Source: Treponemataceae bacterium (GTDB lineage Bacteria; Spirochaetota; Spirochaetia; Treponematales; Rectinemataceae). Taken from it: a stretch of 64,000 nt of DNA. Location of the stretch: positions 320,001 through 384,000 of the forward strand of contig CAXXGJ010000002.1 in the NCBI GenBank assembly GCA_963677895.2. The letters are read 5' to 3'. Shown piece by piece: positions 1 through 14,734 of this stretch (position 1 is its first letter; the number at the start of each line of letters is the position of its first letter). The notes below the pieces were generated by a model that was not told the origin of the DNA, did not search any database, and worked only from the letters and a program-made list of their open reading frames with translations. The position numbers were made by a program, and so were the translations under genes.

Positions 1-1521
1 CAGGCTGGCGTTGGGCAGAGCCGCGAATGTTTTCAAGGCCCCTTCCAGGATCGTATAGGGATCGTACTCTGACTGCAGCATGACGAAGCCCCCGGCTCGG
101 GCTATGGTCTCGACGGGCGGTCGCTTTACCCTTTGACCGCCCCAGTACAGACAGGGATTCTCGATGCCGGAACCTCCGAAAAGGGGATAGAGTTCGGCGT
201 TGAAAGCGCTTGCCAGAACCCAGGCATCCGCGTCGTACGAGGTTCCCGCGTCATTGCACTGCACGGCCCATCCAACGGCGTCAAATGAATCCATGTCGAC
301 AATGCCGGTCTCCATCCGCAACTTTTGGAAATAATTCTTGCTGATCGTCTTGGCTCTTTCGAGCGCCAGATCGCGGAATTCAGGCGGGACTCCCCATTCA
401 TTTTTATCTAGCAAAGCGTTGAGCGATTCTTCTGTTTCGGGCGAATGGGTGCCAAGCAAGCCTTGCACTGTCTTCGCGGCATAAAAGGTGAACAGTGTGA
501 CGTGAGCGTTGACGGATTGAGCGATAGTCTCGTGCAGGAGAGCCGATGTAACATCCAGAAGATTCCCCCGCAGTGAACGGAAGATCTGCCGCACTTCTTC
601 GGCGGAGCCTCCTAGTTTGAAGATTTCCGGATTTTCGGCGGCGTAGGGGGCCAATATCTCGTCCATCACCCGCTGCATTCCCATTTCCTGCGACAATAGC
701 GTATCGTTGAGCTTTACGGTTATATCGGTGTTGCCGATCATCACCATGCGCCCGACCCGCTCGGGGAACAGGCCCGCATACCAGGTGCCGAGCCATGTTC
801 CGTATGAAATACCCAGATAGTTCAGTTTGTCGTCGCCCAGCACGCACCGTATGATATCCATGTCGCGGGCGGTGGCGTCGGAGTTAATATAAGGCGTCAA
901 CGGATTGCTCAGACAGGCTTTCGCTTTCAAGCGGGCGTTGAGCAGGTTGTTTTGTATGTTTTCCGCGGCGCCGTCGGCGACGAGAATGCTGGCGGACATG
1001 AGTTTTTCGGCTGACGTACAGCGCAATTGGGTGCTGGAACCGGTTCCCCGCGGCGAGAAACCGACTAGGTCGTAGCATTGCGCGATTTCCCTGAAAAGCT
1101 TGCCGGATTCGCTGTTCGTGACGGGGTTGGCCTCTCCCCAGAGATACCCGAACAGCAGGCTGTAAGGCAGTCCGTCATCTCCCGGCCCGCCCGGGTTGAT
1201 GAGGATGGCGCCTCGGCGTCGCTGTGGATCCCCCGCCGCCACCTTGAGCAGGGCGACTTCAATGTCGCCGCGCGCGGGGTCGGTGTAGTCAAGAGGAACC
1301 TTTATGGTGGCTCGGCGCGCCCTCTCGCCGAACAGGGTCAGCAGCCCTTTGTAGTCGTCGCTCAAGGTGCCGGGGTCGCAGGCTATCCATGCCGGAACCT
1401 GGTTTTCATAGACGGCCAGCAGGTTGGACGCTTCATCCGCGCCGCTCGCGGTCACCAGAAGAAAACCCATTATCAATAGCAGTGTTCCACGGACTAAAAA
1501 CCTTGATCGTTGTTTCATCAT
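1..1521 (-). CDS. Secreted TAP-like alpha/beta-hydrolase (tripeptidyl-peptidase / peptidase S33 family), 3' end runs off the window
   Basis: Not in the ORF track (no stop inside the window). Manual translation gives an open frame MMKQRSRFLVRGTLLLIMGFLLVTASG (signal-peptide-like) with VPLDY, INPGGPG, YDLVGFSPRGTG, ARDMDIIR and nucleophile motif GISYG. Confidence 0.85.
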   Translation of the reverse strand, partial: MMKQRSRFLVRGTLLLIMGFLLVTASGADEASNLLAVYENQVPAWIACDPGTLSDDYKGLLTLFGERARRATIKVPLDYTDPARGDIEVALLKVAAGDPQRRRGAILINPGGPGDDGLPYSLLFGYLWGEANPVTNSESGKLFREIAQCYDLVGFSPRGTGSSTQLRCTSAEKLMSASILVADGAAENIQNNLLNARLKAKACLSNPLTPYINSDATARDMDIIRCVLGDDKLNYLGISYGTWLGTWYAGLFPERVGRMVMIGNTDITVKLNDTLLSQEMGMQRVMDEILAPYAAENPEIFKLGGSAEEVRQIFRSLRGNLLDVTSALLHETIAQSVNAHVTLFTFYAAKTVQGLLGTHSPETEESLNALLDKNEWGVPPEFRDLALERAKTISKNYFQKLRMETGIVDMDSFDAVGWAVQCNDAGTSYDADAWVLASAFNAELYPLFGGSGIENPCLYWGGQRVKRPPVETIARAGGFVMLQSEYDPYTILEGALKTFAALPNASL

Positions 1522-1658
1522 CACGCTCCGCTCGCTTTCATCGTCTAAAAATGATAGAAGTCTCCATCCTCACTCCTCCGATTGTCAAGCGCATTTTTTT
1601 TGCATGTGTCAAACCCAAAAGTTCTTGATGTTCCAGGATCAGGAGCTAGTGCGGTTCA

Positions 1659-2372
1659 TCAGCGAGAGGGGGCCGTGTTCAATTGTTTCTTGATCTGCCG
1701 CCATTGGGGAAGATGGAGCGTCATGAGTCCCTTGAATCGCGCATCGTGGCGCCGCTCCAGCAGATGGACCAGCTCATGGACGACGACATACTCGAGGCAT
1801 TCGGGCGGTTTTTTCGCGAGTTCAAGGTTGAACCAGAGGCGCCTGGCTTTGACGTTGCAGCTGCCCCATCTGGTCTTCATCTTTCGTATGCCCCATGCGG
1901 TGGTTTTTACGCCGAGCATAGGCTCCCACTTCGCGATCAAAGGAGCTATCTCGAGCTTCAGCTGCTTGCGGTACCAACGGTCGAGGACATCCCGACGATG
2001 CGCGACATCAGATCCGGCGCGCAGGGCCAGCTCCATCGTGTCGATCCCTTTTAAAACGACGCCTTCGCGTCCCACTACTTCCCGGATCGCGAGGCTATAT
2101 CTTTTCCCTTGAAACCAATGCGTTTCGCCCTCAGCCATCTCGCGTTCCGGTGGGCGAACCTGGCTCGCGAACTTTTCCCGGTGGCCCTTGATCCACGCGA
2201 GGCGCTCGATCACCGCGAGCTTGATGGCCTCTTCGCCCACCCAGAACGGCACGGCCAAACGAACCTTGCCATCCGGCGGGTAGACGGTGATATGCAGGTG
2301 CCTGATCACCTTGCGGACCACCTCTACCTGGATGCCGGCGACTTCGATCCAGGTCGTCTTGTTATTCTTCAT
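1659..2372 (-). CDS. YgjP-like / DUF45 (M48/SprT-like) metallohydrolase
   Basis: MKTRWGSCN, LEYVVVHELVHL (HExxH) and HDARF motifs. Start placed at MKNNK (2372), which overlaps the hipA stop by 11 nt. Confidence 0.85.
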   Translation of the reverse strand: MKNNKTTWIEVAGIQVEVVRKVIRHLHITVYPPDGKVRLAVPFWVGEEAIKLAVIERLAWIKGHREKFASQVRPPEREMAEGETHWFQGKRYSLAIREVVGREGVVLKGIDTMELALRAGSDVAHRRDVLDRWYRKQLKLEIAPLIAKWEPMLGVKTTAWGIRKMKTRWGSCNVKARRLWFNLELAKKPPECLEYVVVHELVHLLERRHDARFKGLMTLHLPQWRQIKKQLNTAPSR

Positions 2373-3702
2373 CGATACCGCTTCGAAGCCTTTCAACCGC
2401 GGCTTGAATTCCTTCAAGGATCGGCTCTGAAACCGCAGCGGGAAAGTCCGTCGGTAGCGCCGACGACACGGACTCGATCATTTTGGGAGTAACTTCTACA
2501 AGTTCCTGAAAAATTCCTTCAATCTCGCCCCGAGCCCTGCATTTCGACGCGGTGGATCGCCAGCGGCCTGCCGTGATCTGCCCCCATTTGTTGTGTCGAG
2601 CCTTCCCGACAACCGACATGGCCATTGTAAGCTTCTGAGGTGCCAGCTTATTTACCCCATGACCCAAGATTGGATACGCGGACAGTACATCGTAGAAAGG
2701 GGTAAGCGAGAAGCGGCTTTGCGGTTCGAGGAATATGCTGAAATTCTTCGCGTGTCCGTCCGGTGCGGCCAGAATCCAATACAGCACCTGGGCTTTCAGG
2801 AAGTTTTTCCTGTCGACAAGAGCATCTCTCGATCCAAGCAACAGTTCCATAATTCTGATGATCCCAGGCCCGCCCTCATTTTCATATTTCGCCCCTGGCG
2901 GAGTGCCCGTCGCTTGGCACATATCTTCCTGTGGAAGGCGAATCCACCACGTACCATCTGATGAAAGCCTTCTGTCGAAACGCTCTACGACAAGCACATG
3001 CTGATCTTCAAAATCGGCTCTTTCGCAGCGAGCCACCGGGAGGCCATATGCCTCCACGATTCGTGCGCAGAGCCACTCGTTCTCCACCGATTCCTTCATA
3101 TCAGCCTGCATCGACCCGACCAGGCCTAAGGGCAATTTGAATATATGGGACGAAGGGGTTGTTCCTATTGGCATGCACCATCGGCCTTCGTGCCAGAGGA
3201 ACGCTGTCTTTTCCTGGGCTCCAGCGATCGAAATGCGAAAATTGTCATCGAGGGGCTGGCCGAATCCGGGAGAAGCCACCGCTCGCTTAAGAGCTCGCGC
3301 TACCCCGGCTTCATCGAGTGACTGGGCGGAGATGGTTCTGATCTCCGAAGGCGATTCCTCATCAGGTAGGAGCTGAATCGCGCCCACGCAATCTCTTCCA
3401 ATTTCGGCGAGTAGATCAAAGGCTGAGTTTTTCTCGACGGAGAAACGTCTCTGCAAACGCCTACGGATGTCCGCGCTGTCGGGCAACAGATTCTCAAAAA
3501 AGGCTTCAACCACCTCTCCCATATAAGCTGATTCCGCGTTAACTACGGGCATCGAGAGCGAAAGTGGCCGGACCTCTGGGTATTCTAGCCATTCTGCGTT
3601 GTAACGGAACTCATGGATGCCCGAAGAAAGGACTGACCAGGTTCCAACGCGCTCGCCGTTCATCCAAACCCCGAGGCGTTTCATCTTCGATTGCCGGCCC
3701 AT
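2362..3702 (-). CDS. hipA: HipA family kinase toxin (type II TA)
   Basis: N-terminal couple_hipA-like region (PLSLSMP, FFENLLPDS), SIAGAQEK, VERFDR, QEDMCQA, catalytic DGHAKNFS and FYDV. Start chosen at MGRQSK just after the hipB stop. Confidence 0.92.
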   Translation of the reverse strand: MGRQSKMKRLGVWMNGERVGTWSVLSSGIHEFRYNAEWLEYPEVRPLSLSMPVVNAESAYMGEVVEAFFENLLPDSADIRRRLQRRFSVEKNSAFDLLAEIGRDCVGAIQLLPDEESPSEIRTISAQSLDEAGVARALKRAVASPGFGQPLDDNFRISIAGAQEKTAFLWHEGRWCMPIGTTPSSHIFKLPLGLVGSMQADMKESVENEWLCARIVEAYGLPVARCERADFEDQHVLVVERFDRRLSSDGTWWIRLPQEDMCQATGTPPGAKYENEGGPGIIRIMELLLGSRDALVDRKNFLKAQVLYWILAAPDGHAKNFSIFLEPQSRFSLTPFYDVLSAYPILGHGVNKLAPQKLTMAMSVVGKARHNKWGQITAGRWRSTASKCRARGEIEGIFQELVEVTPKMIESVSSALPTDFPAAVSEPILEGIQAAVERLRSGIDEE

Positions 3703-3704
3703 AA

Positions 3705-3956
3705 TTACCACTCCGCCGCGCGAACCGCGCTTGCGCTCTCATCCTTCAGCATGAGTGTCAATTCGAGTTTCAGGGCTACAAGGAGCGTCCGCAGGCTCTC
3801 GACGCTGCAACGATCCGGGTTTGTCTCCAGGGCGGATACCGTCTTGGGGAGCAGCCCGACCAAGCCCGTAATATCCTTCTGAGTAAGCCCAAGCGCTTTT
3901 CGTCGCCCTCGCAGCATGGCCGCAAGTTGTTTCGACGTGTAGATCGCTGTCTGCAT
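3705..3956 (-). CDS. hipB: HipB-like XRE HTH antitoxin
   Basis: Small HTH protein (LRGRRKALGLTQKDITGLVGLLPKTVSALETNP) directly upstream of hipA. Start 3956 is preferred because the promoter overlaps the region near 3968. Confidence 0.88.
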   Translation of the reverse strand: MQTAIYTSKQLAAMLRGRRKALGLTQKDITGLVGLLPKTVSALETNPDRCSVESLRTLLVALKLELTLMLKDESASAVRAAEW

Positions 3957-3958
3957 AT

Positions 3959-4030
3959 TTTCCCCCATAAGGTATATATAGATAATATACCCTGTAAGGG
4001 CTTTATTTGCAATATGCCTTATAGGGGTTT
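3959..4030 (-). promoter_or_regulatory. hipBA sigma70 promoter with three HipB-type operators
   Basis: Minus strand TTGCAA (4007-4012), 17 bp, TATATT (3984-3989). Three 18-bp imperfect palindromes at 3959-3976, 3986-4003 and 4013-4030 (27-bp period) resemble the E. coli HipB operator TATCC-N8-GGATA. Confidence 0.75.
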
Positions 4031-4150
4031 TTATAGATCAATATCATAGCGCCTTCATTTTGGCCAAGTTTTGTCTGGCAACTCAACATAACCAGGTGAG
4101 GGCGTATCTTTTCAACCTGTTTAAATGTGCAAAAGATAGTTTAGGTTATC

Positions 4151-4264
4151 GGCTAACGCCTAGTTAACCTGCAAGCCAGCTCGCGAAGCGATTTGAATGT
4201 AATTTGCTATCTTATATCATAATAAATTATAAATTTCGCTTTCAGGTTGAACTAGATGTTAGAC
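4151..4264 (-). mobile_element. attC: Integron attC site of the DUF262-Schlafen cassette
   Basis: Minus strand: R'' GTCTAAC overlapping the TAG stop, 5-nt spacer, L'' GTTCAACCTG ... L' CAGGTTAAC, 5-nt spacer, R' GTTAGCC. One extra base in L'' (extrahelical G on the bottom strand). Length 114 bp. Confidence 0.88.
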
Positions 4265-6033
4265 TAGAAGCGCTTTGCTATGGCTGCTATTGTCTTCGGG
4301 TCGACGGCCTTTGTTGTTTGATCGCCTTCACGCCAATATAGGTCTGACCCGACAAATGTTAAGTCGGTTTGTTGCGGGATTTCAATCACCACTAGACCAA
4401 GGCCATAGTAGTCGTGGAAATCAATGTGCGACAGAACACTCGATTTCGTTGGTTCGGTGAGACTTGAATTCTTTATTTCATCCCTGATTCGCGTGACGTA
4501 TTGTTCGAGGGTCATACCGAGAGCCTTTGCCTCCCTCCCAATGCCAACAATGTATCGACTGCCAACGAGGATCGGTTTCACACCATCCAACTTCTCAATT
4601 CTCTCGGCGTCAGCGACTTTGTCGGCGACACCTACCAAAATAGTCCCTTCAGACTCTGAGCCGTTATTAGCAATTGCAGCTATTGTGTGAATTATTTTCG
4701 TGAGAACGCTTGGTTCAATCTGACGTTTTCCTGACAGCTCTGTCAGCCCTTGCTTGAGCTCGTAGTTTGCGAGCTCAATGGACGACCTTCGAATCGTTAC
4801 GTCGATGTCTGGGATCGTGCTACCGGAATATGTTCTCGGATTCTTGTCATTTGGCACAAATATGCTCTGAATTAGCCCTTTGATCTGGTCAATACTTTTT
4901 CGCCTCTCCTCAGGAGAAGCACCTTTCTGGCCAATCTCAATTCGTTTATTAAGTCCGCGCATGAGCCTTTTTACTTCGCTGTAACTACTGATCTTGAGAT
5001 TGTTCTTAATGAGCAGTTCGTGAAACGCGAGGAAAATAATGGCAAAGACCGAAGGATATGCGTTACTTGTCTTTGATTCAAAAACCACATCTCTCAAAAT
5101 CTCGCTCTTTCCGTCGGCACAGACCTTCATAATCTCGTCTATACAGAAACTAAACTCCTTCTCGAACTTCTCAGAACCATAAATCGTGAGTGCGGTTTCG
5201 ATTCGATCACTTTCTGCGTCTGCCGTATCATACACCTTATCAAGTGCTTCCTTGGAACGGTCTAGACAAGTCCCCCCAATAGTACAGGCGGTGATGTCTG
5301 CGACACACTGCTCGTCCATACTGTCCCTAAGGTCGGTGGCGCGAAGAATTCCATGTTCGACCCAAAATACGTCTTCTGCTTGAATCTGGTAGCCATGCTT
5401 CGTCTTTGGTAAGTCAATACTTATGGAATGCATTGCATGAAGCGGCAATACGGTTGCCGATCCGTCGCCGCGAATCGTACAGGAAATCTTCCTGACGGCT
5501 TCGGAGAATGAATTCTGAACCCCCGCCTGTCTCCTCTCCTGATCGCTTAGCCGATGTCCGTAAGTGTTAATTCGATCAAAAACATCGTTAATTTCGGTTT
5601 CAGTTGCCTTTCTCATGACCGACAACGCTATGGAGTAGTCAAGTAGCGTGCTCACATCCGCTGCACCAAGTTTAGGCTCTCCATCCCGAATTAAAAATTT
5701 CCCTTCTTCAGAGGCTTTCTTTGCAGTGGGAAACCGATCAACGTCAAAGACGGCTCCGTTTGCTGTTGGAAATGCCATTTCAATGAATGAGAGTACGGCC
5801 TGTAATCTTTGGAGGCCATCAATAATCTCATAGGTTCCAGGCGCTTCTTCGCGCTCAGCGAGCAATATGGCTGGAATTGGATACTTCTTCAGTAATGACT
5901 CAACGAGTTTCTGCTTTTCTTCTAGAGTCCAGACAAGCTTTCGCTGGTACCGGCGATTCACAAAGATTTTTTCTTCTCTGTACATAGAGTACAAGGACTG
6001 CACGGAACTCGTTTGAGATGTCAATTCTGCCAT
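4264..6033 (-). CDS. DUF262 (GmrS/ParB-like) domain fused to a C-terminal Schlafen/AlbA_2 domain; putative anti-phage protein
   Basis: DUF262 motifs YQRKLVW, IPAIL, IIDGLQRL, FDRINTYG. AlbA_2 motifs ELANYELK, IAAIANN, GTILVGVAD, YWREGDQT. GC lower than the flanking chromosome. Confidence 0.85.
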   Translation of the reverse strand: MAELTSQTSSVQSLYSMYREEKIFVNRRYQRKLVWTLEEKQKLVESLLKKYPIPAILLAEREEAPGTYEIIDGLQRLQAVLSFIEMAFPTANGAVFDVDRFPTAKKASEEGKFLIRDGEPKLGAADVSTLLDYSIALSVMRKATETEINDVFDRINTYGHRLSDQERRQAGVQNSFSEAVRKISCTIRGDGSATVLPLHAMHSISIDLPKTKHGYQIQAEDVFWVEHGILRATDLRDSMDEQCVADITACTIGGTCLDRSKEALDKVYDTADAESDRIETALTIYGSEKFEKEFSFCIDEIMKVCADGKSEILRDVVFESKTSNAYPSVFAIIFLAFHELLIKNNLKISSYSEVKRLMRGLNKRIEIGQKGASPEERRKSIDQIKGLIQSIFVPNDKNPRTYSGSTIPDIDVTIRRSSIELANYELKQGLTELSGKRQIEPSVLTKIIHTIAAIANNGSESEGTILVGVADKVADAERIEKLDGVKPILVGSRYIVGIGREAKALGMTLEQYVTRIRDEIKNSSLTEPTKSSVLSHIDFHDYYGLGLVVIEIPQQTDLTFVGSDLYWREGDQTTKAVDPKTIAAIAKRF

Positions 6034-6081
6034 TGTAATGACTCCTTTTTGGTCATGCTCTTTCGTGCGCCGAAGGCGTCA

Positions 6082-6197
6082 GCCTAACATTGGCTTAACC
6101 TTTAAATCCGTGCCCGAAGGTTTTGGCTTGGTTTTTGCATTGTTGTTCCTGCAAAAACCATGACAAAGGATTTATAAGGTCGAAGCATTTGTTATAT
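6082..6197 (-). mobile_element. attC: Integron attC site of the OLD-nuclease cassette
   Basis: Minus strand: R'' ATATAAC 19 nt after the stop, 5-nt spacer, L'' CTTCGACC-TTATAAATCC ... GGATTTAAA-GGTTAAG L', 5-nt spacer, R' GTTAGGC. Two unpaired bases and an inner GGTTTTTGCA/TGCAAAAACC stem. Length 116 bp. Confidence 0.85.
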
Positions 6198-6216
6198 AAA
6201 TTTCCATATATTATTA

Positions 6217-8136
6217 CTAAACAAAAGTTTTATTAATTTCTTTAAAAAGCAGCTCAAAGTGGTCAAAGGTAGTATTTGAAAGCCTTGGTAATATTTCATC
6301 ACGTTTTCTTAAAAATAGATCAGCGGGTTTACCATGATCAAATCTTTCAATTCCAAGGTGCCGTGCTATCTTCCTAACAATAGGGTCAGAACCATTTAGT
6401 TCATTTAGCATAATATTACCACTAAATGCGATATTGTATAGCTCTAAATATTCTTTAGGATCAAACAAATCTTCTATATCTGCTTCTGTTAATCTTAATA
6501 TAGCACCTATAGTAATAATCTTATTTGCTTTTAGTATTCCTTGCTCAACTATTTTTTTAAGCTTTTGATTTCCTCCTTTTTGTGAATCAATAACAACTGT
6601 AACGTCAAGATGATTTCCCAATAGCGCAACAAATGTTGGGACTAAATCTACTCCTCCAACAGGTACAAACGACCATTTTTCATTCAAAAACTCCCTTTTA
6701 CCATCATTTTTAAAATAGTCAGATATAACCTGGAGGTAAGTAAAATCAGAAGTCCCTTCTACAATTAGGTTGTTAGGTGCAATAAATAGATTTTGCACGA
6801 GATCATAACCAAGTGCTCCTTGTAGAGGAAATAAAGTATCTGCATCAGTAGTTGTTACATCTTTCGATACTATTGTTCCTAGCTCTTGTCCTTTATCTTC
6901 AACAAGACGAACTCTTTCCAGTTTCCCCGGTTGTATCATAAAAGGAGAATGGGTTGTATATATTACTTGACATTTTTTTGCTAACCTATCTTCAATGAAC
7001 CTTAAAAAATCTGCTTGAGCCTTCGCATGTAAACCTAGAGCTGGTTCATCCAAAAGAATAATAATTGAATCATTTCTATATTCATATTCCGAGAATGCTG
7101 CAAGAAATGAAAAAAACCATTGAAAACCTGTTGAATGTTCGTTAAATGGTAAGGATAGTTGATGCCTTTGATCCCATATTCTTATCTTTAATTCATCAAC
7201 AACACTTGTTCTCCCTGAAGGTTCGTTTATAGTTTTTAAGGTAATATCTGGCAGTACTCTCAGTTCAGGATTTTGTGTCCAATATTTAAGAACATCTTGT
7301 GTTAATGCATTAGCAACATTTTCAAGTTCTCTTTTCCTTCTTTCATAATCTGGGTTAATAAGGTAGTCTTTATCTGCAGCAGCAAGATTAAGAAGTGCTT
7401 TTGCCGTTATCTCTTTGTCATTTAGCTGATTTTGATCTGTTGTTAATAGTTTTTGAATTTGAACAGAATACGGTAATGTACTATATTCAGACATATACAA
7501 AAACTTTGGCATAATTTTTTTAAGATAGATAATTAGCTTATCATCTAGTGTCTTTCCTTGAAGAGAATTTTGAATTACCTCAACAATTTTACTTGATACA
7601 GCTTTTTGCTCTACAGTATATTCTTCATTAATTCTAATTTTTTCAGAATACTCCTTAAGTTCAGAAATTGTTTTACACTTTGTTGCATCTGTCTTTGTAC
7701 CCTTTGGCCAATCAATTTTATTAATAAGATTGGTCACAAAATAGTTTTCATGTGATTCAATAATGAAATTTTGTTTTCCTGAGTATTCCATATTAATGCT
7801 AAATGGTTTTTTGCAGTTTATAAATCCTTCTCCAAATATTTCTTCGATTTCTTTCGTTTCTTTATCTGAAAAAGAAAATACTGCATTAATAGGTGTAATA
7901 TTTTCAAGAACTTTGCCTTGAATTCTATCTTTTTTTTCAAGCCATGCTGGATATTGATCCGGAATCGAAAATGATACATTTGTTCTTGAAGGATTCAACC
8001 TATATAGAGCATGAAGAAAAGCAGTTTTACCTGATTCATTCTTTCCAACTAGACATGTAATATTATTCTCAATGTCTACATTATTGGAATTAATAATATT
8101 TCTAAAACACTGAACATCAACAGATTTTAGTAGCAT
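6217..8136 (-). CDS. OLD-family ABC-type ATPase + TOPRIM nuclease
   Basis: Walker A GKNESGKT, signature-like STGFQWF, Walker B ILLDEP, H-loop TTHSP, TOPRIM IVEGTSD and DIEDLF. Very AT-rich relative to the host. SD AGGAGG upstream. Confidence 0.85.
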   Translation of the reverse strand: MLLKSVDVQCFRNIINSNNVDIENNITCLVGKNESGKTAFLHALYRLNPSRTNVSFSIPDQYPAWLEKKDRIQGKVLENITPINAVFSFSDKETKEIEEIFGEGFINCKKPFSINMEYSGKQNFIIESHENYFVTNLINKIDWPKGTKTDATKCKTISELKEYSEKIRINEEYTVEQKAVSSKIVEVIQNSLQGKTLDDKLIIYLKKIMPKFLYMSEYSTLPYSVQIQKLLTTDQNQLNDKEITAKALLNLAAADKDYLINPDYERRKRELENVANALTQDVLKYWTQNPELRVLPDITLKTINEPSGRTSVVDELKIRIWDQRHQLSLPFNEHSTGFQWFFSFLAAFSEYEYRNDSIIILLDEPALGLHAKAQADFLRFIEDRLAKKCQVIYTTHSPFMIQPGKLERVRLVEDKGQELGTIVSKDVTTTDADTLFPLQGALGYDLVQNLFIAPNNLIVEGTSDFTYLQVISDYFKNDGKREFLNEKWSFVPVGGVDLVPTFVALLGNHLDVTVVIDSQKGGNQKLKKIVEQGILKANKIITIGAILRLTEADIEDLFDPKEYLELYNIAFSGNIMLNELNGSDPIVRKIARHLGIERFDHGKPADLFLRKRDEILPRLSNTTFDHFELLFKEINKTFV

Positions 8137-8415
8137 AATATATCCTCCTAATTCTTCTAGCTTTTATTTATCACGTAAAAATATATTATTCTTTACAATA
8201 CATTGTATTATTTTTTGCGTCGAAGGCGTCCATCTAGCAAAAATTCGCTTGTTCCGTATATCTCCTAAATCATCATTTTACACCACTCCAGAATCAGCGC
8301 AAGTCTTAATTCCAGTTTTCAAAAGAAAATATCTTGACTTATGTAATCAATATTTTAGTCAAGCATTAGTATTAACACTTTTATTGGTGCTACATGAATG
8401 CTATATTCCCAATAT

Positions 8416-9243
8416 ATGCCCCTCCATATCGGCACCTGTTCCTGGAACTACGACTCCTGGGTTGGGCTGGTGTACGACCAGCCTGAATCGCGATCGGTCG
8501 ACTACCTCGCCGTCTACGCGAAGCGCTACAGGATGGTCGAAGTCGATTCCTGGTTCTACAAGATTCCGGCCATCAGGGAAGTTGAGGAATACGCGGCCGC
8601 CATCGATCCGGGCTTCAGCTTTGTCGTCAAAGCGCCACAGGACATAACGCTCACGCATAAGCGGGGCGGCATTGAACCGAATCCCGCCTTCCTCTCAGCC
8701 GAGCTCTTCGGCCACTTCCTCGAAAGGCTCGCGCCGATCAAAGGCCAAGTCGGTGCTATCATCCTCGAATTCGAGTACCTGAACCGCCAGAAGATGGTTG
8801 GCCAACAAGCCTTCATCGATGCGTTGCGCGCCTTTCTCGATCGCGTGCCCAGGGACATTCCCATCGCTCTGGAGCCGCGGAACGGACCTTACCTCGACGA
8901 AGCTTGGTTCTCCTTCCTGGCTGAAGCCAAGGTCTCCCATGTCTTCTCGGAAAAGCAGTTCATGCCGCCCATCGTCGATCTCTACGCGCGCTACTCAAGG
9001 CTTCTCAACGATCTTGTCATCATCCGCCTGCTCGGCGGCGGCCGGAAAAAGATAGAGGAAGTTTCGGGGGGACGCTGGGACAAGATCATCGATCCGAAGC
9101 CCGAGCTTCCCCATATAGCGGCCATGGTTTCGGATTTGGTCGCGTCGGGGCGCGAGGTCCGGATCGACGTCAACAATCATTATGAGGGATCGGCGCCGGA
9201 AAGCATCGAAAGGTTAAAAGGTTTTCTCTTTTCTCCGTTGTGA
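8416..9243 (+). CDS. DUF72 (YecE-like) TIM-barrel protein
   Basis: HIGTCSWNYDSW, VEVDSWFYKIP, FVVKAP-ITLTH, ALEPRN, VNNHYEGSAP motifs. Confidence 0.88.
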   Translation: MPLHIGTCSWNYDSWVGLVYDQPESRSVDYLAVYAKRYRMVEVDSWFYKIPAIREVEEYAAAIDPGFSFVVKAPQDITLTHKRGGIEPNPAFLSAELFGHFLERLAPIKGQVGAIILEFEYLNRQKMVGQQAFIDALRAFLDRVPRDIPIALEPRNGPYLDEAWFSFLAEAKVSHVFSEKQFMPPIVDLYARYSRLLNDLVIIRLLGGGRKKIEEVSGGRWDKIIDPKPELPHIAAMVSDLVASGREVRIDVNNHYEGSAPESIERLKGFLFSPL

Positions 9244-9330
9244 AATCCCCCTGCGTGGATAATACTATTAAGAACGAGAGCATTCATCGTCTACGATGTA
9301 TGCCACTCTCATAAACCAGGAGACACCAGG

Positions 9331-12300
9331 GTGAAAGCGAACCGTCCACATTCACAGGCACGTTATGCGATCATAATCGCGCTTCTGCTGTTCATAGGCG
9401 GCTTGTTGCCGGCGGCGGCCGAGCAGGGCGCCCTCCCCACATCGTCATTCACGCCACGTCAGCTTGCCGTTATAGCCAAGGAAGCGAGCGAAGCGGTAGA
9501 GCAAGCCCTGCAGTCCACGGGAGCCTCGGCCGCGAGCGTCGCACTGGGCGATGGCGGCGGCACGGTGTGGTCCGCTCAATTCGGATTGGCCGACAAGAAA
9601 GCGAAGAAGGCGCCCGAGGCGGAGACGATGTTCGGCATAGGCTCCACGAGCAAGATGTTCGCCACCGCCGCCGCCATGATACTTGTGGACAGAGGCCTGA
9701 TCGGTCTGGATATGCCCCTCGTCACCTATCTTCCCGAGTTCCGCATGGCGACACCGGGCTACGAAAAAATAACCGTACGCATGCTGCTCAACCATTCCGC
9801 GGGATTCCCGGGAACGGACTACCGCAACGCGATGACGCGCGCCCCGATTCCCGGCTATGCCGATCAGGTTCAGGCGACCCTCGCCGAATCACGGCTGAAA
9901 CACGAGCCGGGATGGATGAACGTCTACGCCAATGACGGCTTCACCATGGTGGAACTTCTCGTCAAGAAAATGACGGGCCTCGATTATCCCGCCTTCATCG
10001 AAAAGGAAATTCTTTCGCCCTTGGGAATGAACCATTCGCTCTACCCGCTCGACTCCTTCCGCGAAGGAAGCTTCGCCAAGCCCTATGCTGGGGAACAACC
10101 CCTCCAGCAGGAGTACGTGGGACCATTGGCCTCGGGCGGGCTCTACTCCACGCCTTCCGACCTCACGCGCTTCGCGGCGATGTTTATAGGGAAAGGCAGT
10201 CTGCTGGATAAGCGGATTCTCTCCCCTGAATCCGTAGCCGCCATGGCTCTGGACCAGACCGCGGGAAGATTCAGTCCCTTGTCCAGCGGCTATTTCCGCA
10301 ATGGTCTCGGCTGGGACACCGTCGATCATGAAGGAATGGCGGCCTTCGGGATAAAGGCTTGGCAGAAGGGTGGCGACACCAATTCCTATGGTTCGACGCT
10401 TATCGTCCTGCCGGAAGAAGGCCTCTCGGTAGCGGTGACCGGCGCCTCGGGCCTGCATTCCGACAGCGCGAACGCGATCGCCGAAATAGTATTGGCTCGC
10501 GCCCTCGTGGAAAAAGGAAGGCTCGCGGCCATGCCGGTCGCGGTTCCGGCGGCAGCCCGGCAGACGGCGGCTGTGCCCCTCGAATTTCTCCAGAATATGT
10601 CAGGCGTCTACGCTTCCTTCAACGCGGTCAATAAAATCGAACTCCGCGCCGACGGCAGCCTTTCATTGTATTCATACAAGAATGACGCGTGGGTGCTGGC
10701 CCTTCAGGGGATGAGCTACCGCGATGACGGATGGTTCAGCTCCAGCGATGCCGGCGCTCCTCCTGTCGACGTTACCAGAATCGTGGCGGACGGCCGCGAT
10801 TACTTGGCGATCCGCATGCCGAGCGCGCATGGGTGGTATCGATCGGCCATGCCGCTCGCGCAAAAAATCGCCCCTCGGCCTCCTCTTTCTGCCGCGTGGC
10901 AGAAACGCGTGGGCAAGACCTGGCTTCCCGTAAATTACGCGGCCGAAGACGATTACCTCGCCAAGGGCGCTGACCCCAGGATCTGGCTCAAGACGATAGA
11001 AGGCGCCGAAGGCTATGTGTTCTCCCGCGGTACCGATGGCTGGATGGCGACGATACCCGCGACCGGAAACGGGGATTATGAATCCCGCTCCTTCATTCTC
11101 ATCCCGCAAATAAACGGTAGGGATCTCTACGACGTGAAGGTTATCCAGCGGGACGGAGAGGAATGGCTTCGCGAAACGAGCACCCTGTATCGGCCCCTCG
11201 ATTCCGTGCCCGCGCTAAGTCTCGGCGAGAGTCGCGTAACGACAGGCACCGAAGGTTATGCGGAATGGCGCCGCCTGCCTGCCGAAGCCCAATTCACCGT
11301 GACCGGGGCGAAAACCTTCAAATTCTACGACGCGGATTTCGCGTTGCGGGATGCCGATTCCCTCACGACGGGCGCAGGCGGCGGGTATCTGGCTGTCTTC
11401 GGCGCCCCAGGCGGCAGCGCGCGAATTTCGGTGCGCTCCATCTCGAAATCTCAGGCTGCGATTTCCGTCCCCTTCTCCCCCGAGCAGAAGGCGCGGATCG
11501 CCGAAGCCGGCCGCAATGCAGCCGAGTCCGTCATGAAATCCTCGGGCGGATCAGCCCTGACCGCCGCCATTGTCGATGAAAGCGGGCTCATCTGGGCCGA
11601 GCAGTTCGGATTCGCCGACAAAGCGACCAGCAGCCCGCCGGAAGCTACCACCATGTTCGGCATCGGCTCGGTGAGCAAGATGTTCGCGGCCGTCTCGGCG
11701 ATGATCCTCGTCGACCGTAATCTCGTGGACCTCGACGCGCCGCTTACGGACTACCTTCCCGAATTCCGGATGGCCGATCCGCGCTACAAAGCGATCACCG
11801 TGCGGATGATTCTGAACCACAGCGCGGGCCTGCCCGGCGCCGACCTGCGCAACGCCGTAACCCTCGTCCCCTACACCGAAATGGCGGGTCAGGTCCTCAG
11901 GACAATCCAGACGCAGCGCCTCAAGCACGAGCCGGGCTTCATGTCCGTCTACGCCAACGATGGTTTTACCCTTACCGAACTCCTTGTTGAGGCTGTGTCG
12001 GGAATGCGCTTCCCCGATTTCGTGCAGAAGGAAATATTCTCGCCTCTAGGGATGGCGAACAGCCGCTACCCCACCGTGGAGTTCCCCGCCGATTCCTATG
12101 CCCACGTCTATTTCGGCGAGGAAGGCGCTCCCTGGTTCTTCTTGAACATGTATGGCACGGGCGCGCTTTTATCCACACCGACTGATCTGGCGAATTTTTC
12201 GATGATGCTGGCCTCGGGCGGCGAATACAAGGGGAAAAGGATATTGTCGGAAGCCTCTGTCCGCGCAATGGGGCAGGACCAGACCGCCGGCACCTTCAAT

Positions 12301-13509
12301 CCCCTGCCCTCCGATTACATGCGCTTCGGCCTTGGCTGGGATACGGTCGCCCAGCCCGGCTTGAAGGCCTTGGGCATCCGCGCATGGCAGAAGGGCGGCG
12401 ATATTTCCGGTTTCTACGGCGCCACGATGATCGTGCTGCCTGACGAGGGCATGGCCGCGATCGTGGCCGGCGCTTCCGGGATCGATTCGGGCCTCGCCAC
12501 CAAGGTGGCGGAGACCCTGCTTCTGCGCGCTTTAGTGGAAAAAGGACGGCTCGCCGAAATGCCCGCGCCTATCGTCGGCACGGCTTCGGCCCGGCGCCCG
12601 ACAGGCATCGCTGAACGCGTCGCGATCGAAGGGTACTATGCCGGTTCAGGCAAGCTTTATAGGGCCAGGTTCAACGCGGACGGCGGCCTTTCCGTCGAGC
12701 AGATGAGCGGCGGCGCCTGGACGCCTTTCGGTTCCGGCCTTACGGCGCGCGCCGACGGCTGGTATTCATCGGAGGACCCGGCTTTATTCTCCCTGCGATT
12801 CATCGATGCCGATGGCGGCCGCTATATCAGCCTCCGGAAAACATCAGGCTACGGCCACTACACGATCCATCTGCTCTATGCCCAGAAGCTCGAGAACGCG
12901 CCGCCTCTTTCCGAAGCCTGGAAGGCCAGAACGGCCGAGACCTGGCTCCTTTCGAACGAAACGCCTTCTCTCGCCATGCCCGACGATTCCGCCGATCCGC
13001 GCCTGAAGGTCAGCGCCCCGCCTGAGCTCCCCGGCTATATCGACTACGGATGGGACGGCGGACTGAACACGGTGCGGCCCGTCAATGATTCGCTGGCCGC
13101 CATGTTCCTCCTCATCCCTGGCGCCATGGGACGGGATCTCAACGACCTCGTCTCCGAAACGATAGGCGACGCCGAATATCTACGCGTTGGCGGACCGCGT
13201 TTCAGGATTGCGTCTTCGGTGCCCAGGCTCGGCGCCGCGCCCAAAGATCCTCAGGCCGCATCTTCGCGGAGCGTTCTCATCGGGGACAAAGGCCTTGGCG
13301 AGTGGACGAGAATAGTGGCGCCTTCGGAGGGGATCCGCGCCGTTTCCATAAAGAATTCCACGCTCTGGCGCCTCTACGACGAAGGCTTCAACCTCATCGC
13401 CTACGGGACGGAGGCCGGTACGGCCGATCTGCCCAAATCCACGGGCGGATTCTGGCTCGTGACCTATGGAAAGCCTGGTTCCGCGGTGGAATTGACGCTT
13501 ATTCCTTAG
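9331..13509 (+). CDS. Secreted serine hydrolase with two tandem beta-lactamase/AmpC-like modules
   Basis: Signal peptide. Two copies of SxxK (GSTSK, GSVSK), LNHSAG, YAN and WQKGGD, each followed by a homologous C-terminal extension. Confidence 0.88.
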   Translation: MKANRPHSQARYAIIIALLLFIGGLLPAAAEQGALPTSSFTPRQLAVIAKEASEAVEQALQSTGASAASVALGDGGGTVWSAQFGLADKKAKKAPEAETMFGIGSTSKMFATAAAMILVDRGLIGLDMPLVTYLPEFRMATPGYEKITVRMLLNHSAGFPGTDYRNAMTRAPIPGYADQVQATLAESRLKHEPGWMNVYANDGFTMVELLVKKMTGLDYPAFIEKEILSPLGMNHSLYPLDSFREGSFAKPYAGEQPLQQEYVGPLASGGLYSTPSDLTRFAAMFIGKGSLLDKRILSPESVAAMALDQTAGRFSPLSSGYFRNGLGWDTVDHEGMAAFGIKAWQKGGDTNSYGSTLIVLPEEGLSVAVTGASGLHSDSANAIAEIVLARALVEKGRLAAMPVAVPAAARQTAAVPLEFLQNMSGVYASFNAVNKIELRADGSLSLYSYKNDAWVLALQGMSYRDDGWFSSSDAGAPPVDVTRIVADGRDYLAIRMPSAHGWYRSAMPLAQKIAPRPPLSAAWQKRVGKTWLPVNYAAEDDYLAKGADPRIWLKTIEGAEGYVFSRGTDGWMATIPATGNGDYESRSFILIPQINGRDLYDVKVIQRDGEEWLRETSTLYRPLDSVPALSLGESRVTTGTEGYAEWRRLPAEAQFTVTGAKTFKFYDADFALRDADSLTTGAGGGYLAVFGAPGGSARISVRSISKSQAAISVPFSPEQKARIAEAGRNAAESVMKSSGGSALTAAIVDESGLIWAEQFGFADKATSSPPEATTMFGIGSVSKMFAAVSAMILVDRNLVDLDAPLTDYLPEFRMADPRYKAITVRMILNHSAGLPGADLRNAVTLVPYTEMAGQVLRTIQTQRLKHEPGFMSVYANDGFTLTELLVEAVSGMRFPDFVQKEIFSPLGMANSRYPTVEFPADSYAHVYFGEEGAPWFFLNMYGTGALLSTPTDLANFSMMLASGGEYKGKRILSEASVRAMGQDQTAGTFNPLPSDYMRFGLGWDTVAQPGLKALGIRAWQKGGDISGFYGATMIVLPDEGMAAIVAGASGIDSGLATKVAETLLLRALVEKGRLAEMPAPIVGTASARRPTGIAERVAIEGYYAGSGKLYRARFNADGGLSVEQMSGGAWTPFGSGLTARADGWYSSEDPALFSLRFIDADGGRYISLRKTSGYGHYTIHLLYAQKLENAPPLSEAWKARTAETWLLSNETPSLAMPDDSADPRLKVSAPPELPGYIDYGWDGGLNTVRPVNDSLAAMFLLIPGAMGRDLNDLVSETIGDAEYLRVGGPRFRIASSVPRLGAAPKDPQAASSRSVLIGDKGLGEWTRIVAPSEGIRAVSIKNSTLWRLYDEGFNLIAYGTEAGTADLPKSTGGFWLVTYGKPGSAVELTLIP

Positions 13510-13510
13510 G

Positions 13511-14734
13511 TCACCGGGCAGGAGCGAACTGATGGGGATAGCCGGCCAGTGTCCTCGCTTCCTTGCCGATATCCACCATGAAAGCCAGGTGATCGGAGAG
13601 TTTCGAGTAGTCTATGAAGGGTGTGGCGACGACGACGGCAACGTCGTCGTCGGGGTTGTAGACGACAAGGTTGACGTAGCCGGGGTGAGCGCCGCTATGC
13701 CCCAGCCCTATCGGGGTGCTTCCGATTCCAAGGGCGTAGGTGGCGTTACCCGCCGGAACCTTCGTCATCCTGGCTATCTGTTCTTTACTTAGCGGGCCTC
13801 TTCCCGAGAGGAGAGAGCGTATCCATCGCGCCATATCGGCCGGAGTGCTGATTATGTTGCCGGGGCCGACCTGCGAGGACATATTGTCCTCGACGACTTC
13901 GATAAACCCGGTTCCGTCACTCGCATGGCCGGTCAAGTAAGGCTGGGGCAGTCCCATATCGTTCCCGTTCCAGGGCGCCGACGTATGCTCAAGCCCGAGC
14001 GGCGCGAAAAAATTCTCCTTCAGGAATCGATCATAACTCATCCCCGCTACCCGCTCGACGATTTTCGCCAGCAGGGTGAAGCCGGTATCGCTGTAATGAT
14101 ACTCGGCTCCCGGCTCAGCCGTCGAAAGCCTGTTGGCCGCCACGACGCCAATAAGCTCGTCGGCGGTGAACGTGTGGTCCGGTTCGTTCAATTCGTAGTA
14201 GATATAAGCGTTGTAGTACTGGCCGGCATAGGGATGCTCGCTCGACTCGGGCACCGGATTGTTGAAAACGTCGAAGATGCCCGCTCTGTGCGACAGAAGC
14301 TGTCGTATCGTTATGCGATCTTTATTGGGTACCGCGTAATTCGGCGAATCCGCGAGGTAGGGAACATCGGTGCCGGGAATCGTGTCGGTAAGGACAGCTT
14401 CTATATCCAACTTTCCTCGTTGATCGAGGAGCATGATGGAGGCCGCGGTGAAAGTCTTGCTCACCGAGGCTATGCGATAATGCCATGTCTCGTCGGCGCC
14501 GTCCGGAAGGCCTGCCATAGCCGCGGCGTTGCCCCTGGGAGTCTCGAGATAGACAACGACCCCCGCGCCGTCCGGCAGATCGTGCGACGCTTTATACGCC
14601 GCGTATTTTTCGGAAACCATCGATTGAATCGATGGTTGCGCGATATTGATCGCCTCTTCGCTGCCCGCTTCCGCTGAAGCGAAAGAGAGGACCAGGAGGC
14701 CGAGAAACGCGGCGTAGACGAATCTTTTATTCAT
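13511..14734 (-). CDS. Secreted beta-lactamase-related serine hydrolase (D-peptidase/DD-carboxypeptidase-like)
   Basis: Signal peptide; IASVSKTF (SxxK), LLSHRAG, YSDTG, GHSG. Confidence 0.85.
   Translation of the reverse strand: MNKRFVYAAFLGLLVLSFASAEAGSEEAINIAQPSIQSMVSEKYAAYKASHDLPDGAGVVVYLETPRGNAAAMAGLPDGADETWHYRIASVSKTFTAASIMLLDQRGKLDIEAVLTDTIPGTDVPYLADSPNYAVPNKDRITIRQLLSHRAGIFDVFNNPVPESSEHPYAGQYYNAYIYYELNEPDHTFTADELIGVVAANRLSTAEPGAEYHYSDTGFTLLAKIVERVAGMSYDRFLKENFFAPLGLEHTSAPWNGNDMGLPQPYLTGHASDGTGFIEVVEDNMSSQVGPGNIISTPADMARWIRSLLSGRGPLSKEQIARMTKVPAGNATYALGIGSTPIGLGHSGAHPGYVNLVVYNPDDDVAVVVATPFIDYSKLSDHLAFMVDIGKEARTLAGYPHQFAPAR

Follow-up and report, generated by a model that had tools for sequence, protein, structure and literature searches.

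The window analysed here is a 64,000-nucleotide stretch of a Treponemataceae bacterium (assembly GCA_963677895.2, contig CAXXGJ010000002.1, positions 320,001 to 384,000), and this work concerns a minus-strand gene at 4264..6033 together with the integron-like elements that surround it. The gene is an open reading frame of 589 codons with an ATG start, preceded a few bases away by GGAG, and no internal stops. A previous sequence-only reading had proposed that it encodes a DUF262 domain fused to a Schlafen/AlbA_2 nuclease-like domain, and this is borne out by two Pfam matches over cut-off in the unbroken frame: GmrSD_N/DUF262 (PF03235) at residues 14-169 (E 1.3e-21, 78 bits, cut-off 33) and SLFN_AlbA_2 (PF04326) at residues 423-575 (E 2e-07, 32 bits, cut-off 25.3). 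The motifs quoted in that reading are all present where it had placed them (YQR at residue 29, DGLQRL at 72, FDRIN at 152, ELANYELK at 420-427, AIAN at 453 and GTILVGVAD at 463). It was also right about the missing HNH/DUF1524 domain, given that Pfam gives no DUF1524/HNH match at E<=0.1 and the GmrSD-type HNH motif (E/D)H(I/L/V)xP is absent from the protein; judged from its sequence, the protein is not a GmrSD enzyme, having no HNH. NCBIfam returned only a weak ParB match, below cut-off. In the PADLOC comparison suggested at that time, PADLOC 2023 gave partial matches to the DUF262 part, the best being Menshen NsnA (101 bits, residues 5-184 only), and contained no full-length model for the protein. 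A contig from sequencing run X3 is identical to window positions 4006-6095 (0 differences); this run is coded as another sample and study and may represent the same strain or data set. The features of the locus are collected in Table 1.

Table 1. Coordinates of the features described at the locus, in window positions.
Feature	Position	Strand	Basis
pSlfn7-class gene (589 aa): DUF262 NTPase, possibly BrxU-like helical middle region, Schlafen nuclease	4264..6033	-	Pfam, alignment, model
DUF262/GmrSD_N domain (ParB/Srx fold), residues 14-169	5527..5994	-	Pfam; conserved motifs; fold matches; predicted homodimer interface
DUF262 motif sites	YQR 5941-5949; S46 5896-5898; DGLQR 5806-5820; FDRIN 5566-5580	-	sequence
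Middle, mostly helical region, residues ~170-402	4828..5526	-	no Pfam family; model
Schlafen/AlbA_2 nuclease domain, residues ~403-589	4267..4827	-	Pfam PF04326; fold matches
Putative catalytic E420-x4-E425-x-K427	4753-4776	-	motif kept in 108/108 sequences
attC closing the pSlfn7 cassette, 114 bp	4151..4264	-	R''/L''/L'/R' geometry; bottom-strand hairpin of -15.3 kcal/mol
Inferred gene cassette 2, 1931 bp: 54-bp leader, pSlfn7 gene and attC	4157..6087	-	G|TT crossovers of attC sites
attC of the upstream OLD-like cassette, 116 bp	6082..6197	-	R''/L''/L'/R' boxes, extrahelical G; hairpin of -25.9 kcal/mol
OLD-like ABC-ATPase + TOPRIM gene, 639 aa; separate defence candidate	6217..8136	-	AAA_15, E 3.6e-28
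Inferred cassette 1 (OLD-like)	6088-8237	-	attC crossovers
attI-like insertion slot, no integrase gene beside it; crossover 8238/8237	8238..8268	-	same junction in a second contig of the assembly (C5) and in the congener G001
Possible cassette promoter, Pc-like -35/-10 pair, weak evidence	8275..8302	-	by-eye conservation in three slot alleles
hipB (3705-3968) and hipA (2362-3711) toxin-antitoxin pair, outside the cassettes, just downstream	2362..3968	-	Pfam HTH, HipA_C, Couple_hipA

Conservation was assessed in 108 sequences: the query, and 107 full-length proteins that represent clusters made at 50% identity. This set was reached from 151 sequences by keeping the 109 within the length range and removing one more for coverage. 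The Ex4(E/D)xK motif of the Schlafen domain (E420, E/D425, K427) is kept in all 108 divergent sequences. Equally invariant are Y29-Q30-R31, D72, G73, Q75, R76, F152 and N156, while residue 46 is always S or T and the third position of DGxQR is always hydrophobic (M in 63, L in 40, V in 3 and I in 2). The conserved residues of the middle region are R168, R188, D190, S205, W224, S238, D240 and E241. The mean column conservation is 0.53 for the DUF262 domain, 0.39 for the Schlafen domain and 0.33 for residues 261-400, and on this alignment the conservation of the motifs is far beyond chance. The QR, DGQQR-like and FxxxN motifs described for GmrS (PMC4619093) are all found in the protein, where Q75, R76 and S46 would be the counterparts of BrxU Q101, R102 and S42, matched by motif rather than by superposition. 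In BrxU these three residues are required for defence, and S42 lies in a dimer interface that is opened by nucleotide binding (PMC8565348). In SspE the arginine of DGQQR is required for both GTP hydrolysis and defence, and hydrolysis licenses the C-terminal nuclease (PMC13251355).

An AlphaFold2 model of the whole protein was built from 114 sequences (mean pLDDT 86.9, pTM 0.83). Its C-terminal domain (residues 403-589) matches DIP2311 (Z 10.5, rmsd 3.7, 142 residues aligned), SAMD9 (Z 10.3, rmsd 3.8, 159 aligned), SLFN14 (Z 8.7, rmsd 3.1, 122 aligned), SLFN11 (Z 7.9, rmsd 3.2, 121 aligned) and SLFN13 (Z 7.8, rmsd 3.3, 120 aligned), so that the modelled domain has the Schlafen/AlbA_2 fold expected by the sequence-only reading. 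The N-terminal part matches SspE, BrxU and ParB/Noc in fold, with Z values of 6.8-8.4; the DUF262 domain alone gives Z 8.4 (rmsd 3.9, 144 aligned) with SspE and Z 6.9 (rmsd 3.0, 96 aligned) with ParB, and the N-terminal ~400 residues give Z 8.3 with residues 4-392 of BrxU, but at an rmsd of 10.6 over 275 aligned residues. When folded alone (pLDDT 89.7), the middle region found residues 243-418 of BrxU at the top of 48,161 chains (Z 6.5, rmsd 4.6, 158 aligned; Z 5.3 for the runner-up), which is suggestive of a BrxU-like region at the level of the model. Modelled as two copies together with GTP and Mg, residues 1-400 scored 0.62, compared to 0.01 for the best of three controls; 20 of 30 solved pairs and 1 of 23 single chains came up to the mark used. 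The dimer runs agreed in at least 79% of contacts, with pLDDT of at least 83, and place a DUF262-DUF262 interface that includes residue 46. The passing score may stem from likeness to the solved BrxU and ParB dimers, and the interface is a predicted one.

The question of whether this fusion had been characterised, left open by the sequence-only reading, has an answer in the literature: DUF262-Schlafen fusions form the class pSlfn7 ('DUF262.pSlfn'), which takes in 109 of 5,930 Schlafen proteins from prokaryotes (Perez Taboada et al., Nat Microbiol 2026, PMC13056530). The fusion is therefore already published, with a close relative validated as broadly anti-phage, and the window gene, which almost beyond doubt belongs to this class, is a further member and not a new system. 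Two members were tested, EcoSlfn7 from E. coli UC4224, which was active, and EluSlfn7, which gave no clear protection (PMC13056530). We retrieved EcoSlfn7 through the locus given in supplementary file 22 of that paper (NZ_CP104472.1:4519514-4521283; WP_028985442.1). It is also 589 residues long and aligns end to end with the window protein with one gap, 331 of 589 residues being identical (56%) and 75% positive; it has the same two Pfam matches and an identical catalytic motif, and both proteins fall in one 23-row clade of a 54-row FastTree tree (SH-like support of 99).

EcoSlfn7, alone and under its own promoter, significantly lowered the plating of T2-T7, 538-fold in the case of T7 (PMC13056530). 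The values reported are 2.75 for T7, 1.25 for T5, 1.16 for T4, 1.0 for T2, 0.52 for T3 and 0.41 for T6 (PMC13056530), taken here as log10 reductions, since 2.75 fits the stated 538-fold; there was no significant effect on lambda, P1 and T1, and the values for M13, MS2 and Qbeta are 0 (PMC13056530). The proposal of a single-gene anti-phage candidate with an intact Schlafen motif is thus upheld through this relative, and by analogy the window copy would probably protect against some phage when expressed. By a further analogy, there is good reason to expect that its nuclease acts on tRNA or another RNA. In the same study tRNA cleavage is demonstrated for RorSlfn5 only, a phage-triggered tRNase that senses the T5 tail chaperone and acts without an SOS response, its cleavage of tRNA being tied to a lower burst size (PMC13056530). 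Our literature search, whose coverage left aside most subscription papers, found no report of a trigger, a target or an NTPase role for any pSlfn7. DUF262-Schlafen fusions are not described in the accessible text of the HEPN review PMC3710099 or of PMC13552941, and no Spirochaetales appear in the 61 of 109 pSlfn7 table rows checked in PMC13056530.

Relatives of the protein are numerous: of 8,000 candidates that were scored, 1,906 reach E<=0.001, and the best 120 of these 1,906 all have at least 56% identity over 97-100% of the query. A search of genome contigs with the single protein gave 2 loci only. Around 101 intact homologue loci, 313 neighbouring open reading frames fell into 223 clusters, the largest of which occur in 14, 13 and 8 loci and resemble the portal, terminase and replicase of P2 in size, place and orientation, as in annotated E. 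coli loci; no recurring partner gene was found among these loci. The EcoSlfn7 gene itself belongs to a P2-like prophage, where it is flanked by the replication and portal genes. A closer copy is present in 30 of 5,426 E. coli genomes, and the two that we examined (H3 and H28) occupy the same P2-like replication-portal slot; a divergent pSlfn7-like protein (~32% identity) is widespread on enterobacterial plasmids, with 145 plasmid records covering at least 80% of the query. None of 66 annotated phage records exceeded 80% coverage, all being partial DUF262 matches, and contigs of IMG/VR hold full-length copies. In one IMG/VR contig (L123, 501-5769) the homologue is split into two frames and has no convincing attC. 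Closer to the source organism, no full-length homologue was found in the 60 relatives sampled, which gave two weak DUF262-only matches, and a sample of 400 other genomes of the phylum contained a single one (G292), 43% identical, from another clade and with no convincing attC.

The surroundings of the gene, which the sequence-only reading did not mention, are those of integron cassettes, a known store of anti-phage genes (review PMC13434031). In the attC that follows the gene the L boxes pair 7/7 with an extrahelical G on the bottom strand, and the first base of its R'' box is the last base of the stop codon. On the other side, the R' crossover (6088/6087) of the attC belonging to the OLD-like cassette opens the pSlfn7 cassette. 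That upstream attC is of the same family as 32 plus-strand sites on another contig of the assembly (C39), and matches more than 100 places in the congener G001 among the matches listed, at 70-91% identity. The leader of the pSlfn7 cassette matches exactly 7 of the 41 cassette leaders on C39. The attC sites were located with our own pattern scan of fixed geometry, not with IntegronFinder, and the pattern is loose (38 real matches against 21, 15 and 10 in shuffled genomes), so the cassette call rests on position, clustering and homology rather than on the count. Outside C39, an attC lies downstream of 11 of 2,923 long open reading frames, and two of these 11 are the pSlfn7 gene and its neighbour. 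Considering this evidence, we have very little doubt that the pSlfn7 gene is an integron cassette. Joints in run X3 that pass over the gene (from 4219 or 4262 to 6078) were considered as evidence of excision and rejected, given that the attC sites of other cassettes can produce them.

The neighbouring OLD-like gene belongs to a cassette of its own. Its protein shows an OLD-like TOPRIM match that stays below cut-off (E 0.0016), partial PADLOC matches to AriA, Old and GajA, and no full-length PADLOC model; plasmids from hosts that include Streptomyces, Octadecabacter and Natrinema carry full-length relatives with 35-50% identity, whose sole annotation is AAA ATPase. A contig from run X6 holds positions 6076-8236 flanked on both sides by foreign DNA and without pSlfn7, which fits the predicted boundaries, and we conclude that the pSlfn7 and OLD-like genes are separate mobile units. 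Their GC contents are 46.6% and 31.3%, respectively, in a genome of 56.0% whose array contig C39 has 33.4%; since the value of the pSlfn7 gene fits neither the genome nor the array, its capture from elsewhere is suggested. The gene would then have been taken into an integron cassette and afterwards inserted at an attI-like slot, in second place after the unrelated OLD-like cassette. Members of the pSlfn7 class are rarely carried in cassettes, as far as the sequences surveyed tell: a downstream attC-like match, and a poor one, was seen in 1 of 106 other evaluable loci compared to 1 of 655 shuffled controls, in a survey that includes redundant loci and a scan that may miss divergent attC. Literature searches joining integron cassettes, Schlafen and phage defence turned up only the review PMC13434031 and a HEPN survey, and the main text of the Darracq preprint on integron defence cassettes (bioRxiv 10.1101/2024.07.02.601686) has no match to Schlafen, DUF262 or AlbA, although its supplements may list such cassettes.

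The slot has a DUF72 gene on one side and an M48 peptidase gene on the other, and carries different cargo in three alleles; the 90% cluster of the DUF72 gene has a named member from a Spirochaetales bacterium. The same junction in G001 (L021, ~300-380) holds a cassette for a GNAT acetyltransferase that has a short attC of its own, and a second allele within the assembly, on contig C5 (~7610-7680; cargo at L164 2130-7590), holds genes for 477-aa and 1,262-aa proteins. C5 may come from a co-binned strain (contamination 5.5%). The 477-aa protein has a PADLOC PDC-M36A match (E 1.3e-08) and the 1,262-aa protein a PifA/KAP-like N-terminal match (E 1.8e-10); the attC-like sites after these two genes look degenerate. 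The ~30 bp before the slot crossover resemble sites that follow intI in G001, G019 and G026, and the likeness is confined to these ~30 bp, the 200 bp upstream of the slot giving low scores (20-37) with whole intI loci. The intI genes of these three genomes (L016, L018, L020, L015) encode long proteins of 394-430 aa that are extended at the N-terminus; the genes point the same way as the cassettes behind them, and the attI-like site lies downstream of the intI stop. A consensus promoter scan of 3900-8450 found 16 sites against 14.1 +/- 3.3 in shuffled sequences, with the candidate promoter unlisted, and 2 terminators against 3.2; because the scan shows no excess over shuffles, the promoter call rests on conservation only. 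An Rfam scan of positions 1-12000 gave a single chance-level match (E 0.51). The hipBA pair is complete in the window, represented by a hipB-like gene only in G001, and missing altogether from the C5 allele; the run of hipB, hipA and M48 peptidase genes (1659-3968, minus strand) is variable among the alleles, and inverted repeats upstream of hipB may be operators.

By the definition of Cury et al. (2016, PMC4889954), which asks for at least two attC and no intI nearby, the window array is a CALIN. From its sequence it seems to retain an attI-like site, which is probably served by an integrase acting in trans; an IntI over cut-off is present in four of the five relatives tested. Excision and integration dependent on IntI are hinted at indirectly by the three cargoes found at one crossover and by the OLD-like cassette in foreign flanks. 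Whether these spirochaetes keep integrase-free slots, each an attI with a promoter, remote from their large arrays and exchange the cargo, often defensive, in trans is in our judgement an evenly balanced matter.

The best overall explanation, held with moderate confidence, is that the protein works alone, with a GmrSD/BrxU-like NTPase dimer switch gating a Schlafen tRNase, as if the HNH DNase of a GmrSD/BrxU-like chassis had been exchanged for a Schlafen RNase. Sequence and model show the three parts, with intact NTP-binding motifs in DUF262 and an intact Schlafen active-site motif. Protection against several lytic phages by the single gene has been demonstrated with the 56%-identical EcoSlfn7 rather than with the window copy. 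As in BrxU and SspE, DUF262 would dimerise and bind or hydrolyse NTP, in a cycle that holds the nuclease off until infection. As in RorSlfn5 and SLFN11, E420, E425 and K427 would then cut tRNA, so that translation stalls and phage yield drops, probably at a cost to the cell. The trigger is the weakest step: it could be some common sign that lytic T-type phages are taking over the host, not base modification, and the candidates are broken or degraded DNA bound by DUF262 or the middle region, or a shift in the nucleotide pool. T2-T7 take over the host rapidly and break down its DNA, and lambda and P1 are not known to do so. Because this behaviour is common to T2-T7 and not known from lambda and P1, broken DNA or a nucleotide-pool shift is favoured, tentatively and with somewhat less than even confidence.

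Several observations weigh against this reading. The Z value of 6.5 between the middle region and BrxU falls in a range reachable by unrelated folds, and a Foldseek search with this region gave no match at E<=0.001. With Pfam the Schlafen domain scores modestly, and its best Z values are 8-10.5; DGLQR differs from DGQQR at its third position. On the scale that gives EcoSlfn7 2.75 for T7, no value of EluSlfn7 exceeds 0.19 (PMC13056530), and since one of the two tested members is inactive, pSlfn7 membership is no guarantee of activity. A catalytic mutant, an RNA target or a trigger of pSlfn7 was not found in the accessible parts of PMC13056530, where 'Slfn7' occurs once in the main text. The lytic phage T1 escapes EcoSlfn7, which neither a host take-over mark nor a phage-protein trigger explains. 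As regards the delivery of the gene, no IntI over cut-off was found in the assembly (92.8% complete), in which the best tblastn matches, on other contigs, are 28-32% identical to generic tyrosine recombinases, and weak expression is possible given the second position of the gene, ~2.2 kb from the putative promoter. The RNA runs screened contained only 10-12% of the sequence words looked for.

Other triggers were considered for the same nuclease. The sequence-only reading had DUF262 sense modified phage DNA, as in GmrSD, BrxU and Dazbog, and then activate the Schlafen RNase, which we now regard as quite improbable. The DNA of T3, T5 and T7 is essentially unmodified. It is against T7 that EcoSlfn7 is strongest, which disfavours a modified-DNA trigger, as does the ranking of T7 and T5 above T4, T2 and T6 and the activity on T3 (PMC13056530). 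Speaking for it, wherever the trigger of a DUF262 protein is known, it is a DNA mark (modified cytosines for GmrSD and BrxU, phosphorothioate for SspE and probably methylation for Dazbog; PMC10952713), and EcoSlfn7 does restrict T2, T4 and T6 (PMC13056530). Unlikely, in our estimation, is an RNase effector set off by a phage protein, with the GmrSD-like half serving as bait for DNA-mimic or anti-restriction proteins, in the manner of PARIS or PrrC. Candidates for such proteins are T7 Ocr, T4 IPI* and Arn. The peak of the EcoSlfn7 effect on T7 agrees with a trigger of this kind, as does the fact that RorSlfn5, the sole pSlfn with a known trigger in PMC13056530, senses a phage protein; so does the resemblance of the N-terminal 400 residues to the type IV restriction chassis of BrxU, with the high rmsd given above. 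However, the six phages affected belong to three unrelated groups, so several unrelated proteins would need to trip one sensor, and DUF262 is the most conserved part of the protein, whereas the sensing domain of pSlfn5 is reported as variable (PMC13056530). An extension of the bait idea, distinctly unlikely as we judge it, treats pSlfn7 as a booby-trapped restriction enzyme, a GmrSD/BrxU chassis with its NTP-driven dimer switch retained and its DNase exchanged for a tRNase, in which phage anti-restriction or DNA-mimic proteins that jam the switch set off tRNA cleavage inside a single polypeptide. If true, it would join type IV restriction with Schlafen immunity and explain the strongest effect on T7, and it would cover the whole published pSlfn7 class, not the window copy alone.

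The remaining alternatives concern the nuclease, the partner and the state of this copy. A restriction-like DNase, with the Schlafen domain cutting phage DNA in place of HNH and the cell surviving, would suit the GmrSD-like chassis, and the homologous domain of SAMD9 has been solved bound to DNA according to its entry title; nonetheless the motif is the RNase site of SLFN11 and RorSlfn5, the latter having cut tRNA with no SOS response (PMC13056530), which leaves this reading highly improbable. That the DUF262 protein acts with the upstream OLD-like ATPase-TOPRIM nuclease as a Menshen-like pair is barely credible. Its basis is the NsnA match, the joining of a DUF262 gene with an OLD nuclease in Menshen (PMC10952713), the adjacent and co-oriented genes, and locus L123, where a 33%-identical OLD gene lies 1.5 kb upstream of the frameshifted pSlfn7 homologue. 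Against this, an attC lies between the two genes, whose GC contents differ; of 130 loci with a pSlfn7 homologue, many of them short, only one has an OLD homologue nearby; the X6 contig carries the OLD cassette without pSlfn7; and EcoSlfn7 works without an OLD partner (PMC13056530). The window protein is not Menshen. Finally, it is improbable, in our view, that the window copy is real but inactive or silent, either through a wrong trigger range like that of EluSlfn7 or through poor transcription in the second cassette position. The inactivity of one of two tested members in E. coli agrees with a silent copy, and so do the distance of only 54 bp between cassette start and ATG, which probably leaves no room for a promoter of its own, and the weak expression reported for distal cassettes (review PMC13434031); on the other side, the reading frame is intact, the catalytic residues are all kept, and the clade is that of the active EcoSlfn7.

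Elsewhere in the genome, C39 (1-46421) is a 46-kb cassette array with 33% GC, at least 32 near-identical attC, IS insertions and no intI on the contig; its cargo, judged by eye from translations, includes toxin-antitoxin-like genes and many genes of unknown function. On contig C13 (~8500-13400; L166), a third attI-like core at ~13,358 heads a defence-like run of genes with an attC at 9903-10027; the run encodes a 384-aa protein with a PADLOC match to a TIR effector, Shedu SduA (E 1e-144, 397 aa) and a 241-aa HNH protein. Contig C4 (8001-11800; L165) encodes a 1,086-aa protein with a weak NACHT/NB-ARC match, followed by an attC, a small cassette and a second attC, and this gene is a possible NLR-like defence cassette. 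Within the window, positions 9331-14734 include a gene for a 1,392-aa protein in which two serine-hydrolase/beta-lactamase-like repeats stand in tandem, and convergent with it a gene for a similar 407-aa protein, both recognised by eye and both with signal-peptide-like starts, also by eye.

The window copy adds one more intact protein, from a distant phylum, in which the trigger and target of pSlfn7 could be studied, and solving this class would reveal how nucleotide switching in a ParB fold controls a Schlafen tRNase. The slot with changing cargo and no adjacent integrase is a small natural example of how an integron array might place defence genes at sites far from itself. Compared to integron defence cassettes and CALIN (PMC4889954; Darracq et al.), the array likewise consists of single genes closed by attC, with at least two attC and no intI nearby, and it differs in keeping an attI-like site with cargo that varies among three alleles. 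With the GmrSD family (BrxU, PDB 7p9k; SspE, PDB 6jiv) the protein shares the DUF262 ParB/Srx fold and the QR, DGxQR and FxxxN motifs, and possibly the helical middle region and the DUF262 dimer interface; their DUF1524/HNH effector is replaced here by Schlafen, the third residue of DGxQR is hydrophobic, and the phage range of EcoSlfn7 shows no sign of their dependence on modification. RorSlfn5 has the same Ex4(E/D)xK nuclease core and is the model for phage-triggered tRNA cleavage, but with the Schlafen domain at its N-terminus, an Ig-like sensor at its C-terminus, activity on T5 only and no NTPase domain (PMC13056530). The closest counterpart is EcoSlfn7, which agrees with the window protein in length, domain order, catalytic and DUF262 motifs and clade, and differs in its setting, a P2-like prophage there and a spirochaete integron cassette here.

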